Under the pieces are notes generated by a model. It saw only the letters and a list, made by a program, of their open reading frames with translations. It made no database searches and was not told where the DNA came from. A program made the position numbers and the translations under genes. Source: Escherichia coli (lineage in GTDB: Bacteria > Pseudomonadota > Gammaproteobacteria > Enterobacterales > Enterobacteriaceae). From it: 64,000 bases of DNA. Of this stretch, positions 2,322 to 26,279 are shown one piece after another; the first letter of the stretch is position 1; each line of letters begins with the position of its first letter. Where the stretch lies: the NCBI RefSeq assembly GCF_013122565.1, contig NZ_CP053258.1. One strand, given 5' to 3'.

Positions 2322-4613
2322 TTGTCAGAACTACTCTCTTTCGCCCTTTTTCTCGCCTCTGTGCTGATTTACGCATGGAAAGCGGGACGTAACACCTGGT
2401 GGTTTGCAGCCACGTTAACGGTGCTTGGGCTATTTGTCGTTTTAAATATCACCCTGTTTGCCAGCGACTATTTTACTGGCGATGGTATTAACGACGCGGT
2501 TCTCTATACCTTAACCAACAGCCTGACCGGTGCTGGCGTCAGCAAATACATCCTGCCGGGTATCGGCATTGTGCTGGGGCTGACGGCGGTGTTCGGTGCG
2601 CTGGGCTGGATCCTGCGCCGTCGTCGTCATCATCCGCACCATTTTGGTTACAGCCTGCTGGCGCTCTTACTGGCGCTGGGTTCGGTGGACGCCAGCCCGG
2701 CATTTCGTCAGATAACGGAACTGGTGAAATCCCAGTCACGCGACGGCGACCCGGACTTTGCGGCTTATTATAAAGAGCCGTCGAAAACTATCCCTGACCC
2801 GAAACTCAACCTGGTTTATATCTACGGCGAAAGTCTCGAGCGGACCTATTTTGATAACGAGGCTTTCCCGGATCTCACGCCTGAACTGGGCGCGTTGAAA
2901 AATGAAGGCCTGGATTTCAGCCACACGCAGCAGCTGCCAGGAACGGATTACACGATTGCGGGCATGGTGGCTTCTCAGTGCGGCATACCGCTGTTTGCCC
3001 CCTTTGAAGGCAACGCCTCCGCTTCTGTTTCCAGCTTCTTCCCGCAGAACATCTGTCTGGGCGATATCCTGAAAAACTCGGGTTATCAGAACTATTTCGT
3101 GCAGGGCGCGAATCTGCGTTTTGCCGGTAAAGATGTGTTCCTGAAGTCGCATGGCTTCGACCACTTATATGGCTCAGAAGAGCTGAAAAGTGTGGTGGCC
3201 GACCCGCACTATCGCAACGACTGGGGATTCTACGACGATACCGTTCTCGACGAAGCGTGGAAAAAGTTTGAAGAGCTTTCCCGCTCAGGTCAGCGATTCT
3301 CACTGTTTACCCTGACAGTCGATACCCATCACCCGGATGGTTTTATCTCGCGCACCTGTAACCGCAAAAAATATGATTTTGACGGTAAGCCGAATCAGTC
3401 ATTCAGCGCGGTAAGTTGCAGCCAGGAGAATATCGCGGCGTTTATCAACAAAATCAAAGCGTCACCGTGGTTTAAAGATACTGTCATCGTCGTCTCTTCT
3501 GACCATTTAGCGATGAACAACACGGCGTGGAAATACCTCAATAAGCAGGATCGCAATAACCTGTTTTTTGTCATCCGTGGCGACAAGCCGCAGCAAGAGA
3601 CGCTGGCAGTGAAGCGTAATACGATGGATAACGGCGCGACGGTGCTGGACATTCTCGGTGGCGATAACTATCTCGGACTTGGTCGTAGCAGTTTATCCGG
3701 GCAGTCAATGTCGGAAATCTTCCTCAATATCAAAGAGAAAACATTGGCGTGGAAGCCGGATATCATCCGCCTGTGGAAATTCCCTAAAGAGATGAAAGAG
3801 TTCACCATCGACCAGCAGAAAAACATGATTGCCTTCTCGGGTAGCCATTTCCGTTTGCCGCTGCTGTTGCGGGTTTCAGACAAACGCGTGGAACCGCTGC
3901 CGGAAAGCGAATACTCAGCACCGCTGCGTTTCCAGCTGGCCGATTTCGCTCCACGCGACAATTTCGTCTGGGTTGACCGTTGCTATAAGATGGCACAACT
4001 CTGGGCTCCGGAACTGGCACTTTCCACCGACTGGTGTGTCTCGCAAGGGCAGCTTGGCGGTCAGCAAATTGTCCAGCATGTTGACAAAACAACATGGAAG
4101 GGCAAAACGGCATTTAAAGATACGGTCATCGACATGGCGCGTTACAAAGGCAATGTCGATACGCTGAAGATTGTTGATAACGATATTCGCTACAAAGCCG
4201 ACAGTTTCATCTTCAACGTCGCCGGTGCGCCAGAAGAGGTGAAACAGTTTAGCGGGATTTCCCGTCCGGAGTCGTGGGGCCGCTGGTCCAACGCTCAGCT
4301 GGGCGATGAAGTAAAAATCGAGTACAAGCATCCGCTGCCGAAGAAATTTGACCTGGTGATTACCGCCAAAGCATACGGCAATAACGCCAGCCGTCCTATT
4401 CCGGTACGCGTAGGCAATGAAGAACAAACCCTTGTGCTGGGCAATGAAGTGACCACCACCACGCTGCATTTCGATAACCCAACCGATGCCGACACACTGG
4501 TAATTGTGCCGCCGGAACCTGTCTCAACCAACGAAGGGAATATCCTCGGACACTCGCCGCGTAAGCTCGGGATCGGCATGGTGGAAATTAAAGTGGTAGA
4601 ACGTGAAGGGTAA
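2322..4613 (+). CDS. opgB: Phosphoglycerol transferase I (OPG biosynthesis), sulfatase-family membrane enzyme
   Basis: 763 aa with apparent TTG start; N-terminal TM segments then sulfatase-like domain; sequence recognised as OpgB/MdoB. Confidence 0.93.
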
Positions 4614-4625
4614 TTCCTGACTGAT

Positions 4626-4749: not shown

Positions 4750-5772
4750 TCAGAAAGTAATTACACCCTTAATCAACTCACGATTGTTAATCACATCGCG
4801 CTCGTAGGTTTCTGCCAGCGTGGCGAACGGGTAGCGATGGGTTAACATCATGTCGGCAGTGATTTTTCCTTCCGCCATCAGTCGACCGACTTTAGCGAAA
4901 TCTTCCGGCGTGGCGTTGCGGCTGCCCATCATCGTCGTTTCTTTTTTATGGAATTCCGGATCGGAGAACTGCAACTCACCTTTAAACAGACCGACAAATA
5001 CCACCGTGCCGCCGTGACGAATCAGATTCACGGTGTTATTCATCGCATGTTGATTACCTGTCGCGTCGATCACTTTCTGCGCCAGCGAACCACCAAACTG
5101 CGCCCGCAGCTGCGCGTCAAAATCTTCGGCTGACGGGTCCAGCACGGGCAACTCCAGACGCGTTGCCACATGTTCACGGCGCGCCGGACTGGTATCCGCC
5201 ACCACCACCTGTGCGCCATCAGCTTTAGCGATTGCCGCCGCGCCCAGACCGATTGGCCCCGCCCCGACCACCAGCACCTGCTCGCCGGGAGCAATGGCTG
5301 CGCGACGCACCGCATGAGCGCTAATAGCGAAAGGTTCAATCAATGCTGCCGCCTGCGGGTCAATACCATCTGCGGGCAAAATGTTCGCCACCGGCACGCT
5401 CAAATACTCACTAAAACCGCCATCCTGATGCACGCCAATGACTGAAATTTTTTCACAGCAATTGGTACGACCGCTTTTACACGCCGGGCATTGCTGACAG
5501 GCAACATAAGGGATCACAGCAACTTGCTGACCATTTTTAAGATCAGCAATATTTTTACCCAGCCCAACAATCTCCCCACATATTTCATGGCCTAAAACAC
5601 GTGGATAACTAAAAAATGGTTGATTTCCACCCCAGGCATGAATATCGGTACCGCAAATCCCGACAGACTTAATTTTTATTAATGCTTCATTGTCACCCGG
5701 AATAGGTATCTCACGTTGTTTCCAGACTAATTCTTTCGGCTGCTGGCAAATTAAAACATTCATTGTAGACAT
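4750..5772 (-). CDS. lgoD: L-galactonate 5-dehydrogenase (Zn-dependent alcohol dehydrogenase family)
   Basis: MSTMNVLICQQP...; GHE and GxGxxG (VVGAGPIGLG) motifs; recognised as LgoD/YjjN. Confidence 0.9.
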   Translation of the reverse strand: MSTMNVLICQQPKELVWKQREIPIPGDNEALIKIKSVGICGTDIHAWGGNQPFFSYPRVLGHEICGEIVGLGKNIADLKNGQQVAVIPYVACQQCPACKSGRTNCCEKISVIGVHQDGGFSEYLSVPVANILPADGIDPQAAALIEPFAISAHAVRRAAIAPGEQVLVVGAGPIGLGAAAIAKADGAQVVVADTSPARREHVATRLELPVLDPSAEDFDAQLRAQFGGSLAQKVIDATGNQHAMNNTVNLIRHGGTVVFVGLFKGELQFSDPEFHKKETTMMGSRNATPEDFAKVGRLMAEGKITADMMLTHRYPFATLAETYERDVINNRELIKGVITF

Positions 5773-5910
5773 GATTCGGCTCTCCATTTTTTGTTGCCTT
5801 AGATATCAATGAAAATGAAAAATGGCAGCGGAACGGAAAATCTGTTTTGTGAAAACACACGCATAAAAATGTTTTAAATCGGGTTTTAATGGACTCACAA
5901 GGAGGAAAAT

Positions 5911-6825
5911 ATGAGTCGTTCACAAAATTTACGCCACAATGTGATTAACCAGGTCATTGATGATATGGCGCGGGGTCATATCCCTTCCCCACTTCCATCG
6001 CAAAGTGCGCTGGCGGAAATGTACAACATCAGCCGCACCACAGTGCGTCATATTCTCAGCCACTTACGCGAATGCGGCGTCTTAACGCAGGTTGGAAACG
6101 ACTATGTTATTGCGCGTAAACCTGACCATGATGACGGTTTCGCCTGTACTACCGCTTCAATGAGTGAACAAAACAAAGTGTTTGAGCAGGCTTTTTTCAC
6201 GATGATAAACCAGCGTCAGTTACGCCCTGGGGAAACTTTTTCTGAACTGCAACTGGCTCGGGCCGCGGGTGTCAGCCCGGTTGTAGTAAGAGAATATCTT
6301 TTAAAATTCGGCCGTTATAATCTTATTCAAAGCGAAAAGCGCGGCCAGTGGAGCATGAAGCAATTCGATCAATCCTACGCCGAGCAGCTGTTTGAGCTAC
6401 GCGAAATGCTCGAAACACATTCACTTCAGCACTTTCTCAACCTGCCTGATCATGATCCCCGCTGGCTGCAGGCGAAAACCATGCTCGAACGTCATCGGCT
6501 ACTGCGTGACAACATCGGCAATAGCTTTCGCATGTTCTCGCAACTTGACAGAGATTTTCACTCCTTACTGCTTTCAGCTGCCGACAATATCTTTTTTGAT
6601 CAATCGCTTGAGATCATCTCAGTCATCTTTCATTTTCACTATCAATGGGACGAAAGCGATCTTAAACAGCGCAATATCATTGCCGTCGATGAGCATATGA
6701 CCATTCTCAGCGCTCTGATTTGCCGCAGTGACCTTGATGCCACCCTTGCGCTCCGTAACCATTTGAATTCAGCTAAACAATCAATGATTCGATCCATTAA
6801 TGAGAACACGCGTTATGCTCATTAA
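5911..6825 (+). CDS. lgoR: GntR-family transcriptional regulator of L-galactonate catabolism
   Basis: 304 aa, N-terminal HTH, C-terminal FCD-like domain; recognised as LgoR/YjjM; divergent from lgoD. Confidence 0.9.
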   Translation: MSRSQNLRHNVINQVIDDMARGHIPSPLPSQSALAEMYNISRTTVRHILSHLRECGVLTQVGNDYVIARKPDHDDGFACTTASMSEQNKVFEQAFFTMINQRQLRPGETFSELQLARAAGVSPVVVREYLLKFGRYNLIQSEKRGQWSMKQFDQSYAEQLFELREMLETHSLQHFLNLPDHDPRWLQAKTMLERHRLLRDNIGNSFRMFSQLDRDFHSLLLSAADNIFFDQSLEIISVIFHFHYQWDESDLKQRNIIAVDEHMTILSALICRSDLDATLALRNHLNSAKQSMIRSINENTRYAH

Positions 6826-20819: not shown

Positions 20820-22240
20820 TGGCAGGGTTAAATAAATATCAGGCGTATCCGGAGTATAGGGATTCTGGGGTGGAGTGGTTGGGGGAGATACCCTCACACT
20901 GGAGCGTTAGCAAGCCCCGTTATATGTTTAATTTCGGCAAAGGGCTTACAATTACCAAAGAGAATCTCCAGGACGACGGGATACCTTGCATTAACTACGG
21001 TGAAATCCATTCAAAATATGGTTTTGAAGTATCCCCCAAAATTCACCCATTGAAATGCGTTGATGAGAAGTATATAAAAGATAATTCAGGCTCATTACTT
21101 TTAAAAGGAGACATTATTTTTGCAGACACATCTGAAGATATTGATGGTTCCGGTAATTTCTCACAACTAATCAGCGATAATATTTCATTCGCTGGTTATC
21201 ATACAATTATTGCCAAACCACTTAATAGAAGAAATTGGCGATTTTATGCTTATCTTCTTGATTGCAAAGAGTTGCGAACCCAAGTTAGACATGCAGTTAA
21301 GGGAGTAAAGGTATTTAGCATTACACAAGCTATTTTACGCGGCCTTTCTATTTGGCTCCCTACGGATGATGAACAGAGTAAAATAGCTGATTTCCTCGAC
21401 CACGAAACTGTAAAAATCGACAACCTAATCAAGAAACAACAACAACTCATTGAACTACTGAAAGAAAAACGTCAGGCAGTGATTAGCCATGCGGTGACCA
21501 AAGGGCTAAATCCTGATGTGCCGATGAAAGATTCTGGGGTTGCGTGGTTGGGGAAAATACCAAAACATTGGGAAATGAGTAAACTACGCTACATGTTTCG
21601 CTTCGGAAAAGGTCTAACAATTACAAAAGAACATCTGCACGATGAGGGGGTTCCATGTGTTAACTATGGCGAAATACATTCTAAATTTGGTTTCGAAATC
21701 GACCCTCAAATTCACAAATTAAAATGTGTTGATGAATCGTACATTCTAAATAACCCCGACTCATTGATCTATAAAGGAGATATTATATTTGCAGATACAT
21801 CTGAAGACATTGACGGCGCTGGTAATTTTACACAATTGATTAGCGATAACCAAATATTTGCCGGTTATCACACTATTATATTACGCCCTCTTAATAGAGA
21901 GTCCTTAAGGTTTTATGCATATATATTTGATAGCAAAGCACTACGGGCACAAATTAGTAATGCAGTGAAAGGCGTGAAAGTATTTAGTATTACTCAAGCC
22001 ATTCTTCGAAGTACATCGATATGGTTTCCACCATTATCAGAACGAGAACGTATTGTTGCATTTCTCGATAACCAAACAATAAAAATCGATACCCTAATTG
22101 AGAAACAACTCCACCAAATAGCTCTCCTAAAAGAACGCCGCACCGCCCTTATCTCCGCTGCCGTCACCGGAAAAATCGACCTACGCAACTGGACCGCCCC
22201 CATCCCCGAAGCGGAAACACCCACGGAGGCCAGCGCATGA
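20819..22240 (+). CDS. hsdS: Type I R-M specificity subunit with two near-identical target-recognition halves
   Basis: 473 aa; aa 16-228 and aa 239-452 are clearly homologous; each half ends in a conserved coiled-coil-like region (LIKKQQQLIELLKEKRQA / LIEKQLHQIALLKERRTA). Confidence 0.85.
   Translation: MAGLNKYQAYPEYRDSGVEWLGEIPSHWSVSKPRYMFNFGKGLTITKENLQDDGIPCINYGEIHSKYGFEVSPKIHPLKCVDEKYIKDNSGSLLLKGDIIFADTSEDIDGSGNFSQLISDNISFAGYHTIIAKPLNRRNWRFYAYLLDCKELRTQVRHAVKGVKVFSITQAILRGLSIWLPTDDEQSKIADFLDHETVKIDNLIKKQQQLIELLKEKRQAVISHAVTKGLNPDVPMKDSGVAWLGKIPKHWEMSKLRYMFRFGKGLTITKEHLHDEGVPCVNYGEIHSKFGFEIDPQIHKLKCVDESYILNNPDSLIYKGDIIFADTSEDIDGAGNFTQLISDNQIFAGYHTIILRPLNRESLRFYAYIFDSKALRAQISNAVKGVKVFSITQAILRSTSIWFPPLSERERIVAFLDNQTIKIDTLIEKQLHQIALLKERRTALISAAVTGKIDLRNWTAPIPEAETPTEASA
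20864..22175 (+). repeat. Internal tandem duplication (about 670-bp unit, 2 copies) within hsdS
   Basis: Direct comparison of the two halves of the translated ORF and underlying DNA (e.g. ggggtggagtggttggggga vs ggggttgcgtggttggggaa). Confidence 0.7.
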
Positions 22241-25200
22241 ACCACGACATTACAAAAGAGGTTAACCTGCAAAACGACATTATCGCGCAGATGGTGGAAA
22301 AAGGCTGGATTGTCGGCAAAGGTGACGGCTACGACCGGGAACGTGCGCTATACGCACAAGACACCTTAAACTTCGTAAAAACCACCCAACCGCAGGAGTG
22401 GGAGAAATTCGCACGCGTTTATCCCAACGACACCGAGCGCCATTTCCTCGACGCGCTGGTCGCGCAGCTTAAAAAAGCCGACAGCAACGCCACTGATATT
22501 CAGTCGCGCACCTGGGGTACGCTCGGCGTACTTCGCCACGGCCTGAAAATTCGCAATGCCCGTTTTTCGCTGTGCCAGTTTAAACCGGAACATAATCTCA
22601 ACCCGGAAACGCTGGCGCGCTATCAGCAGAATATCTGCCGTATTGTGCCGGAACTGGTCTACAGCCCGTATGCCTCAAATAGCGTCTTTGCAGAAACGGG
22701 CGTGAAAGCCAAAAAATGGCGTATCGATCTGGTGCTGTTTATCAACGGCCTGCCGGTTGCCACGCTGGAGCTAAAATCCGAATTTAAACAGGCGGTGCAG
22801 AACGCCATTGCCCAGTACAAAAAGACCCGCCTGCCGAAAGATCCCGCGACCAATAAACCTGAACCGCTGCTGACCTTTAAGCGCGGCGCGCTGGTACATT
22901 TTGCCGTCAGCCAGTATGACGTCTTTATGACCACCAAACTCGCCGGTGACAGCACCTTCTTCCTGCCGTTTAACAAAGGCACCAAAGACGGCGGCGCAGG
23001 CAACGAGATCCCCGAAGATACTCGCCGCTACGCCACAGATTATCTGTGGAATGAAGTGCTGCTGCCGGACAACTTATTAAAAATCCTCGCCAGTTTTGTC
23101 CATTTGCAGATTGAAGAAAAAGAGGACTGGAACGGGCTGAAAGCGAAGAAAGAGAGCCTGATTTTCCCGCGCTATCACCAGTGGGATGTGGTCAATAAAC
23201 TGCTGGAGGCCGCGACGATTGAAGGCACCGGCCACAAATACCTGATTCAGCACAGCGCCGGTTCCGGTAAATCGAACTCCATTGCCTGGACCGCCCACCA
23301 GCTTTCTCGTCTATACGACGTTAACGGGGAAAAACTGTTCCACTCCGTTATCGTGGTGACGGACCGTACGGTGCTGGACGACCAGCTTCAGGACACCATC
23401 TGGCAGTTCGAACATGCCGACGGCGTGGTCGGGCGCATCAATAACAGAGAGGGCGACGGCTCCAAATCGGAAAAGCTCGCCAGCGCGCTGGAAAACTCGC
23501 AGCCGATAATCATCGTCACCATCCAGACATTCCCGTTCGTACTGAAAGCTATCGAAAACAGCATCAGCCTGAAGCAGCGTAAATATGCGGTGATTGCCGA
23601 CGAAGCGCACTCATCGCAGAGCGGTTCCACCGCCCGTCAGCTTAAAGAAGTGCTGATGAGCGAAGAGATGGATGATGACGTGGTGCTGTCGTCAGAAGAT
23701 ATTCTGGATGCGACCATTGCCGCCCGGAAAGGCAGCAGTAACCTGAACTACTACGCCTTTACCGCCACGCCAAAATCCAAAACCCTGGAACTCTTTGGTC
23801 GCTGTCCGCGTCCCGATGAACCGGCCTCAAAAACCAATAAACCTGAGGCCTTCCACGTCTACTCCATGCGCCAGGCAATCGAAGAAGGCTTTATCCTCGA
23901 CGTGCTGAAAAACTACACCAACTACAAAGTGGCGTATCAGTTGCTGCAAAAGCTGGAAGATGAAAACCGCGAAGTCGATAGCAAACGGGCGAAGGTAAAA
24001 CTCAATCAGTGGGTGACGCTGCACGACCACAATATCTCGCAGAAGGTGAAGGTGATTGTGGAGCACTTCCGCAAACATGTGATGCATCTGCTTGGCGGCC
24101 AGGCTAAAGCGATGGTGGTCACCAGTTCACGCAAAGCCGCCGTGCGCTACAAGCTGGCGTTTGATAAATACATTAGCGAGAACAATTACCAGAAAATCAG
24201 CGCGATGGTGGCGTTTTCCGGGGAAGTTGAATTCCGGGAAGGCGACCATAACAGCCTGGCATTGTTAAACCAGAAATTTACTGAAATAAACATGAACCCC
24301 GGCCTGAAAGGGCGGGATATGCGCAAAGCCTTCGACAGCGATGATTATCAGGTCATGCTGGTTGCCAATAAATTCCAGACCGGTTTTGACCAGCCGAAGC
24401 TGTGCGCGATGTACGTGGATAAACCCCTCGGTGGCGTCGAGTGCGTGCAGACACTCTCCCGCCTGAACCGCACCTATCCGGGCAAAGCGGAATCAGGCAC
24501 TTTTGTCCTCGATTTTTATAACGATCCAGACGAGATCCTCGGCGCATTCCAGCCCTATTTCCAGACGGCGGAACTGACCGATGTCAGCGATCCGCAGCAG
24601 GTGTTCGATCTGTTTGAAAAACTGCGCGCCACGCAGATTTTCCAGTGGCATGAAGTCGAGCAGTTCTGCGAGGCATACTTCATCAAAAATAAATCGAATG
24701 CGGCGATCAGTAATATCTGCAAACCGGCGGTCGAACGCTGGAAAAAGCGTTATCTGATGGCGATAGACGCCTATTTGACCGCCAAAGAGATGTTCGAGCG
24801 CACCAAAAAAACGGGCGATACAGTATTAATCACCAATGCGGAAAACAGCTTTAAAGCCTGTAAGCAGGAGAAAGATCGTCTGGAGATTTTCAAGAAAGAT
24901 CTCGGCAGCTTTGTTCGTTTTTATGAATTTATGTCGCAGATCGTTGAATACGATGACAAGGATCTGGAAAAGCTAAGCCTGTTTGCTCGTCATCTGCGTC
25001 CGCTGCTGCATGAGCAACGTCTGGAAGAGGATGAAATTGATCTCAGTAATGTGGAGATGAGTCACTATCGTTTATCGAAAATCCATGAGCAAGATTTACG
25101 CTTACAGGAAGAAACGCCTGACTATACGCTGGATGCAAGTAATAATATTGGTACGGCAAAAGCGAAAGATAAAAAAGAGGAGTTTTTATCGCAGGTGCTT

Positions 25201-25500
25201 TCTCGGATGAATGAATTATTCATTAGCGACCATTTGACCGACAAAGATATGATCAGCAATGCTTTTGCGGTGTATAACAAAATAACTGAAAATGAAAATG
25301 TTATGACACAAATTAAAAACAATCCCCCAGAACAAGCGATTCTTGGTGATTTCCTCCAGGCAGTTGATAATGCTGTAATGGACAGTAATGACGCTCGGCA
25401 AGAATTTATGTTGCAATATTTATCCGATCCAGCTCGGGCAAAGGGCTTTGCTTATCTGATGTTTGATATGCTAACGGGGAAAATTGCTTTACCAACATAA
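22237..25500 (+). CDS. hsdR: Type I restriction enzyme R subunit (endonuclease/helicase)
   Basis: 1087 aa; N-terminal PD-(D/E)xK-like DLVLFINGLPVATLELK; SF2 motifs GSGKS and IADEAHSS (nt 23596-23610); ATGA overlap with hsdS stop. Confidence 0.88.
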   Translation: MNHDITKEVNLQNDIIAQMVEKGWIVGKGDGYDRERALYAQDTLNFVKTTQPQEWEKFARVYPNDTERHFLDALVAQLKKADSNATDIQSRTWGTLGVLRHGLKIRNARFSLCQFKPEHNLNPETLARYQQNICRIVPELVYSPYASNSVFAETGVKAKKWRIDLVLFINGLPVATLELKSEFKQAVQNAIAQYKKTRLPKDPATNKPEPLLTFKRGALVHFAVSQYDVFMTTKLAGDSTFFLPFNKGTKDGGAGNEIPEDTRRYATDYLWNEVLLPDNLLKILASFVHLQIEEKEDWNGLKAKKESLIFPRYHQWDVVNKLLEAATIEGTGHKYLIQHSAGSGKSNSIAWTAHQLSRLYDVNGEKLFHSVIVVTDRTVLDDQLQDTIWQFEHADGVVGRINNREGDGSKSEKLASALENSQPIIIVTIQTFPFVLKAIENSISLKQRKYAVIADEAHSSQSGSTARQLKEVLMSEEMDDDVVLSSEDILDATIAARKGSSNLNYYAFTATPKSKTLELFGRCPRPDEPASKTNKPEAFHVYSMRQAIEEGFILDVLKNYTNYKVAYQLLQKLEDENREVDSKRAKVKLNQWVTLHDHNISQKVKVIVEHFRKHVMHLLGGQAKAMVVTSSRKAAVRYKLAFDKYISENNYQKISAMVAFSGEVEFREGDHNSLALLNQKFTEINMNPGLKGRDMRKAFDSDDYQVMLVANKFQTGFDQPKLCAMYVDKPLGGVECVQTLSRLNRTYPGKAESGTFVLDFYNDPDEILGAFQPYFQTAELTDVSDPQQVFDLFEKLRATQIFQWHEVEQFCEAYFIKNKSNAAISNICKPAVERWKKRYLMAIDAYLTAKEMFERTKKTGDTVLITNAENSFKACKQEKDRLEIFKKDLGSFVRFYEFMSQIVEYDDKDLEKLSLFARHLRPLLHEQRLEEDEIDLSNVEMSHYRLSKIHEQDLRLQEETPDYTLDASNNIGTAKAKDKKEEFLSQVLSRMNELFISDHLTDKDMISNAFAVYNKITENENVMTQIKNNPPEQAILGDFLQAVDNAVMDSNDARQEFMLQYLSDPARAKGFAYLMFDMLTGKIALPT

Positions 25501-25565: not shown

Positions 25566-26279
25566 ATGCTGAAGATGATTAAAGATTTTAAATTCAAAAA
25601 ATACATTAAAAAATTACGTGAAGAAGGTTTGTTATTTTATGTTTCTTTCGGGTTTATATTTACATTGTTAATGGAAGTTGATGATCGATTACCGTACTAT
25701 CTTCAACAAGACTTCTTTTTTGATACACTTATAGGATTTATGCCAATCAATATATTCTTTGTTTTGATTTGCACATATATATTTTTCAATGCCGTCCATG
25801 CGCTTATTTCACCCTATAAATTTCAAAGAATTGGTGAGAAATTCCTCTCTGAACTTGATAAAAGAACACAACAAATTGGCTTTATTATTTCATTCATATG
25901 TTTTGGCATGACTTTGTTTTGTGCACTGGTGTGGTTGCTGTTTTTTGATATGAATACTGAAAGTTACTACGCAAAATATACATTAAATTTTTTAGCTGCT
26001 TTTATCATTATGATTATAATTTCTTCAGTAGTTAATCCAGTAATGAACAGAACATTCCAAAAAATGAAGGAATCGGACTCACATGGAAATTCAAAAATAA
26101 TTCTTATAATTATAATCATTATATTATTACTATTATTACCAATTGCGTGCATTATCAATAAAAATAAAACAATTGAAATCAACATTAAGAAAGAAACTTA
26201 TCAGCAAATAAAAGAAAAAACAAAGATGAAACCTGAAGATTATATCAAAAAATTGATTGCTGATATTAAATTCAACTAA
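25566..26279 (+). CDS. Hypothetical AT-rich membrane protein
   Basis: 237-aa ORF with good Shine-Dalgarno (aagga, 7 nt spacing); several hydrophobic segments including a poly-Ile/Leu stretch; very low GC; not recalled at this position in K-12. Confidence 0.5.
   Translation: MLKMIKDFKFKKYIKKLREEGLLFYVSFGFIFTLLMEVDDRLPYYLQQDFFFDTLIGFMPINIFFVLICTYIFFNAVHALISPYKFQRIGEKFLSELDKRTQQIGFIISFICFGMTLFCALVWLLFFDMNTESYYAKYTLNFLAAFIIMIIISSVVNPVMNRTFQKMKESDSHGNSKIILIIIIIILLLLLPIACIINKNKTIEINIKKETYQQIKEKTKMKPEDYIKKLIADIKFN

Follow-up and report, generated by a model that had tools for sequence, protein, structure and literature searches.

[quoted passage not shown] We read this gene as an intact Type I hsdS that is a mosaic of X-family TRDs, that probably belongs to a Type ID system and that is predicted to specify a palindromic or quasi-palindromic site, and we assign this explanation as a whole a probability of about 0.78. 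All positions refer to the window, the whole stretch of 64,000 nucleotides of Escherichia coli DNA that was analysed.

The hsdM-hsdS-hsdR operon and its locus

The hsdS ORF of 1,422 nt encodes a protein of 473 aa. A preliminary description of this DNA had taken the product for HsdS, which was borne out by two Pfam Methylase_S (PF01420) domains at residues 25-211 and 248-433, by a match to PADLOC Specificity_I (E=5e-128) and by the position of the gene between hsdM (18465..20819, plus strand) and hsdR (22237..25500, plus strand). HsdM, the Type I methyltransferase subunit of 784 aa, carries the Pfam domains HsdM_N and N6_Mtase at residues 12-458 and matches PADLOC MTase_I PDLC03029 over its full length (E=1.5e-279). 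It is unusually long, and its C-terminal ~325 aa (residues ~460-784) have no Pfam domain; the full-length match to PDLC03029 indicates that this part is kept family-wide. The 1087-aa HsdR, the helicase-nuclease subunit, was recognized by TIGR00348 hsdR (E=6e-53) and PADLOC REase_I, and its orthologues contain the Pfam domains HSDR_N, ResIII, SWI2_SNF2 and T1R_D3-like. The stop codon of hsdM overlaps the start codon of hsdS (TGATG) and the stop codon of hsdS overlaps the start codon of hsdR (ATGA), indicating translational coupling, and hsdS is the intact middle gene of a Type I restriction-modification operon of three genes, hsdM-hsdS-hsdR. An E. coli HsdS with the identical sequence has been recorded (WP_171459876.1/QJU25683.1), and another E. 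coli assembly (L005) carries an hsdS gene 100% identical in nucleotide sequence. The HsdS of EcoKI is only a distant relative; a profile built from TRD and conserved region aligns full-length to the HsdS of EcoKI and of M. jannaschii, and its alignment to the T. tengcongensis HsdS is confined to the helical region.

The surrounding 17 kb is collinear with the yjiA-yjiR region of E. coli 32F4 (L001) at 96-97% identity. Upstream and divergent from the operon lies a GmrSD-type Type IV restriction gene (16090..18189, minus strand, 699 aa), assigned with PADLOC and by the way RefSeq annotates the collinear locus of E. coli, whose orthologues carry the Pfam domains GmrSD_N and GmrSD_C. Together, yjiA/yjiR and GmrSD place the operon in the E. 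coli immigration control region, where only Type IA, IB and ID systems have been found, with Type ID and GmrSD at 12% each (EcoSal Plus 2025, PMC12707154). The hsdM gene matched only 116 of 5,426 complete E. coli genomes, a rarity from which we read the common IA and IB alleles as excluded, and with its place in the enteric immigration control region, where it stands in for Type IA/IB hsd genes, the operon has the location that characterizes Type ID. The window system is therefore probably Type ID (the StySBLI/EcoR9I/KpnAI family), an assignment made by elimination and locus context.

Several neighbours of the operon were also recorded. Upstream, the minus-strand segments 14581-15027 and 15312-18189 hold an ORF at a BrnA/BrnT-type toxin-antitoxin position, a Fic-family gene and the GmrSD-type gene; this defence-island set is the one reported for the immigration control region and is 97% identical to that of E. 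coli 32F4. Directly downstream of hsdR, a 237-aa ORF (25566-26279, plus strand) had no match in NCBIfam or PADLOC. It accompanies the Type I system in both E. coli loci L001 and L005, and a SymE toxin gene takes its place in L002 and in the Pseudocitrobacter locus L003.

Relatedness and origin of the two TRDs

Each TRD of the window hsdS has a conserved block of 42 nt (x) on one side and a helical region (y) on the other, which gives the architecture x-TRD1-y-x-TRD2-y, all on the plus strand. TRD1 starts with the family-wide conserved block x1 (20861..20902, DSGVEWLGEIPSHW), continues with the core cassette X1 (20903..21379) and is followed by the central conserved (coiled-coil) region CR1 (21389..21529), which includes y1 (21392-21466) and aligns to the helical region of EcoKI HsdS. 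TRD2 starts with the conserved block x2 (21530..21571, DSGVAWLGKIPKHW), continues with the core cassette X2 (21572..22057) and is followed by the distal conserved region CR2 (22058..22198), which includes y2 (22061-22135) and precedes a unique 13-aa tail. The two x blocks are identical at 34 of 42 nt and the two y regions at 55 of 75 nt. Both repeats are conserved in other alleles, as x1 is 92.9% identical to the equivalent block of E. coli 32F4 and CR1 is 94-96% nt-identical to its counterparts. The GC content of hsdM and hsdR is 50-52% and that of the window as a whole 49%, but both TRD segments (20861-21388 and 21530-22057) reach only 37-39%; the low value of the TRDs is consistent with horizontal circulation of TRD cassettes among genera.

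A repeat search of hsdS returned three direct-repeat blocks, all spaced 669 nt and 71-74% identical. In an ungapped comparison at an offset of 223 codons, residues 15-237 and 238-460 were identical at 148 of 223 positions (66%), with 71% identity between the TRDs (15-190 against 238-413) and 49% between the helical conserved regions (191-237 against 414-460). BLASTP of one half against the other gave 69% identity over 213 aa (E=1e-114), and the DNA of the halves is 66% identical over the whole half and about 72% identical over the TRDs (BLASTN). The repeated part had been placed at 20864-22175 in the preliminary description, and this stretch does lie inside the ORF and cover the repeat, with the peptides quoted from it present. 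Its view of two near-identical halves held in so far as the halves are homologous and in register, but at 66% amino acid and ~66-72% nucleotide identity they are far from near-identical. In other alleles, the two halves are mostly 21-34% identical (best 120 homologues), and self-comparison of the DNA of L001 and L002 gave 38-39% nucleotide identity, which is the noise level. The homology between the window TRDs is real, unusual and far above the family background. If the halves resembled each other merely through the HsdS framework of x blocks and helical regions common to the family, the resemblance would draw on the first 14 aa of each TRD and on the helical regions, which are indeed conserved in both halves of all alleles. 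However, neither the low values between the halves of other alleles nor their noise-level DNA self-similarity fits this explanation, and the identity within the window protein peaks in the TRD and falls in the helical regions; we give a framework resemblance virtually no weight.

The preliminary description further explained the halves by an internal tandem duplication. A recent in-gene duplication of TRD plus conserved region, leaving near-identical 670-bp repeats that recombine readily, agrees with the exact register of the halves, 669 nt apart and free of indels, and true recent duplications of the X TRD exist elsewhere (see below). The divergence of the window halves, in contrast, is that of old sequences: Nei-Gojobori pS between them is 0.78-0.79 (saturated) with pN of 0.18-0.22, identity by codon position is 73/80/44%, and exact in-register matches are at most 11 nt long. 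Moreover, for each TRD a copy with 97-98% nt identity exists in some other allele, where the accompanying TRD is unrelated, and TRD1 and TRD2 are never each other's nearest neighbours. A recent duplication within this gene is thus very improbable.

These close copies reveal the composition of the gene. The TRD1 segment (20861-21388) shares 97.2% of its nucleotides with the TRD1 of L002 (P0006), which stands next to an unrelated TRD2; the TRD2 segment (21530-22057) shares 97.9% with its counterpart in Pseudocitrobacter L003/L004 (P0004), which follows an unrelated TRD1. Compared with the hsdS of E. coli 32F4, the window gene has other sequence in the two TRD cores alone: it is collinear up to 20902, again over 21380-21561 and again from 22075, and X1, bounded by the collinearity breaks at 20902 and 21380, is absent from that allele. 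Since each TRD has its closest DNA relative in another allele and only the cores are replaced, the gene is read as a mosaic of two cassettes and not as the product of an in-gene duplication. No observation spoke against this mosaic origin or against the identity of the gene.

The same pattern was seen at the protein level, where the N- and C-terminal TRDs were split and compared for the best 120 of thousands of homologues. X1, at 90-97% amino acid identity, is the N-terminal TRD in alleles of E. coli, Salmonella salamae and Citrobacter with unrelated TRD2, and X2, at 95-98%, is the C-terminal TRD in alleles such as Pseudocitrobacter P0004 with unrelated TRD1. X1-like TRDs are N-terminal in P0006, P0009, P0010, P0012 and others and C-terminal in the Citrobacter proteins P0022, P0047 and P0076 (85-89%), which indicates that the cassettes move between positions. 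Among the 5,426 complete E. coli genomes, megablast with the window hsdS matched conserved parts only, and sensitive blastn with either TRD matched nothing beyond the 42-nt x block, so these genomes tied the allele to no well-studied strain that has a methylome. We infer that the window allele was put together as TRD cassettes were exchanged or moved between alleles that circulate in Enterobacterales. The direction of exchange could also be the reverse, with the window allele as donor and the others as the replacements.

Pairing of two X-type TRDs is not confined to the window protein. It was found in 27 of the best 120 homologues, in 11 of which the two TRDs are mutual nearest neighbours with 72-100% identity. 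In a query-unbiased sample, in which a single-TRD query was run against 50%-identity representatives and the halves were compared directly, 4 of 128 full-length proteins were symmetric. Two metagenomic loci, L006 (hsdS 5001-6431) and L008 (hsdS 3235-4617), have hsdS genes in which TRD1 and TRD2 match without a single nucleotide difference (100%) over 580 and 529 nt, respectively; these are true recent intragenic TRD duplications, and duplication of this kind therefore recurs in the X family. The operon layouts of the two loci differ, with a GmrSD gene between hsdS and hsdR in L008. The identities of the pairs in these relatives span 53% to 100%, and combined with methylomes they could calibrate TRD divergence against half-site specificity.

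The repeats, roughly 670 bp long, had also been put forward as a substrate for deletion of one half and, by that route, for a change of specificity. RecA-dependent recombination in E. coli requires roughly 20-30 bp of perfect homology. With a longest exact match of 11 nt at ~70% identity, the repeats are therefore a poor recombination substrate, and this proposal was not supported. The argument for a change of specificity also works partly against itself: if both TRDs recognise one and the same half-site, loss of one half would give a homodimer with an essentially unchanged site and not a new specificity. No half-size deletion derivative of the window allele was seen among the homologues. P0015 (309 aa) was considered as such a derivative and rejected, as it is a 5′-truncated ORF that belongs to an allele whose TRD1 is another one. 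Another short homologue, P0182 (247 aa, L007 48-791, on a 1-kb contig), has one X-type TRD, one helical region and a C-terminus like that of a normal HsdS; from this composition it is a candidate natural half-size HsdS, which would dimerise on a palindromic site.

Symmetry of the predicted recognition site

HsdS has rotational symmetry, with the two TRDs inverted on an antiparallel coiled coil so that each recognises its own half-site and brings one HsdM into position (Loenen 2014, PMC3874165). In the window system one HsdS would hold two HsdM (and two HsdR), and each TRD would read one half-site and present one adenine per strand for methylation. Since the two TRDs are homologous and held in inverted orientation, related half-sites arranged as inverted repeats are predicted, in line with the symmetric or palindromic site expected in the preliminary description. 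The site would then be bipartite with identical or closely related inverted half-sites, and a Type ID system would give it the form ...A(N6)T..., as the target adenines are 6 bp apart in that family.

To what extent X1 and X2 agree was judged from the conservation of the family. Of the 176 TRD columns, 86 reach at least 80% conservation in a set of 68 non-redundant X TRDs. X1 and X2 agree exactly in 80 of these 86 and differ by conservative changes in five of the other six. The sixth is Arg157 in TRD1 (codon 157, about 21287-21289), which is Ser in TRD2 (codon 380, about 21956-21958) in a column that is 82% Arg. As the sole non-conservative change in a column of at least 80% conservation, R157S is a candidate specificity-modifying position. 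The 51 differences between X1 and X2 cluster in the most variable segments of the family (aa 26-34, 84-95, 121-123, 133-140 and 146-158). In the PacII M1M2S-DNA structure, protruding TRD loops make the base contacts (PMC9613975), and by rough position in the domain these contacts may coincide with the variable segments of the X family. Among DNA-bound HsdS structures, no homologue was close enough to map contact residues.

We put the chance that the window HsdS has a palindromic site, or one degenerate at a single position, at about even on this sequence comparison. Clearly different half-sites, with TRDs that have diverged in specificity, an ordinary asymmetric bipartite site and a resemblance between the halves that reflects shared ancestry alone, are a serious prospect at somewhat below even odds. 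Such divergence would accord with the mere 71% identity of X1 and X2, with the concentration of their differences in hypervariable segments that are maybe DNA-reading loops, with the charge-changing differences NRRNW versus NRESL and R157S, and with the circulation of X1-like and X2-like TRDs as separate clades with different partners. On the other hand, the conserved TRD core is almost wholly common to X1 and X2, a shared target sequence is possible for TRDs with far less identity (about 36%; Cooper 2017, PMC5399793), and the TRDs of S.BstXI are similar and non-identical, yet its site is symmetric. A partly degenerate site, as in Eco851I, GTCA(N6)TGAY, would be intermediate between both readings.

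A symmetric or nearly symmetric site would allow a further reading, which we offer tentatively and at odds clearly short of even: the window enzyme may be a natural, covalently linked 'homodimer-like' classical Type I enzyme with a palindromic or one-position-degenerate site, its X TRD being repeatedly self-paired in full-length HsdS subunits of Type ID-like systems across Gammaproteobacteria, from the two independent 100% nt-identical duplications to old pairs such as that of the window. If this is true, the family would provide a natural series for how many TRD substitutions are tolerated before the half-site changes. The V. breoganii homologue P0078 comes from another strain than the methylome strain 1C-10, so neither VbrI nor VbrII can be tied to an X TRD.

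Comparison with known systems

The window HsdS is, like S.BstXI, a single chain with two similar, non-identical TRDs, in which the homology of the TRDs (71%) stands well above the 21-34% of the family background. Both TRDs of S.BstXI read CCA, and the site is CCAN6TGG (PMC3874165). The likeness is one of description, and the context differs, as BstXI modification is part of a Type II system without HsdR, whereas the window encodes a complete hsdMSR set.

Palindromic sites are also known from half-size or truncated HsdS proteins that act as homodimers, namely EcoR124I(delta50)/EcoR124I-NT, EcoDXXI::Tn5, NgoAV and the half-S of S. aureus CC398. There one TRD is used twice in inverted orientation, which results in sites such as GAAN7TTC, TCAN8TGA, GCAN8TGC and ACCN5GGT. 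These homodimers consist of two separate polypeptides with identical TRDs and are mostly Type IC or engineered; in the window HsdS, by contrast, the TRDs are covalently linked and 29% different.

The origin of the window gene has its counterpart in the domain movement (DoMo) described for hsdS genes of H. pylori, S. pyogenes and M. agalactiae, which share the architecture x-TRD1-y-x-TRD2-y (Furuta et al. 2011, PMC3077401). In those genes a TRD family can occur at either position, with occasional alleles that carry the same TRD twice and with one- and three-TRD derivatives (PMC3077401). Except for the three-TRD form, all of these features were seen in the enterobacterial family of the window gene, including the same flanking repeats around each TRD and one TRD family at both positions among alleles. 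The DoMo cases differ in organism and in Type I family. In addition, the flanking repeats of the window gene are only 73-81% identical, so intragenic TRD movement should be rare.

Type ID systems resemble that of the window as enteric Type I systems at the immigration control region, and their known sites include CGA N6 TACC (StySBLI), AGCA N6 TGA (EcoR9I) and GGCA N6 TTC (KpnAI). The site of the E. coli enzyme Eco851I, GTCA N6 TGAY, has the same 6-bp adenine spacing with near-identical inverted half-sites (GTCA/RTCA), which by analogy is, hypothetically, the kind of site that two 71%-identical TRDs would give. In the literature, 'TCANNNNNNTGA' or Eco851I was found only in the original enzyme lists, which give no gene sequence; as a hypothesis, the window enzyme could even be Eco851I.

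A single-chain S subunit with related TRDs (S.BstXI), the palindromic sites of half-S dimers and the movement and duplication of TRDs have all been described already, and the window gene is a rare new E. coli example of a described type that involves no new mechanism. Its predicted m6A motif class, palindrome-like and bipartite, bears on transformation barriers and on how methylomes are annotated in those few E. coli lineages that have the allele. Beside the systems above, the gene is a further, enterobacterial case of two known ideas, the movement of TRD cassettes between hsdS positions and the pairing of two related TRDs in a single-chain S subunit.
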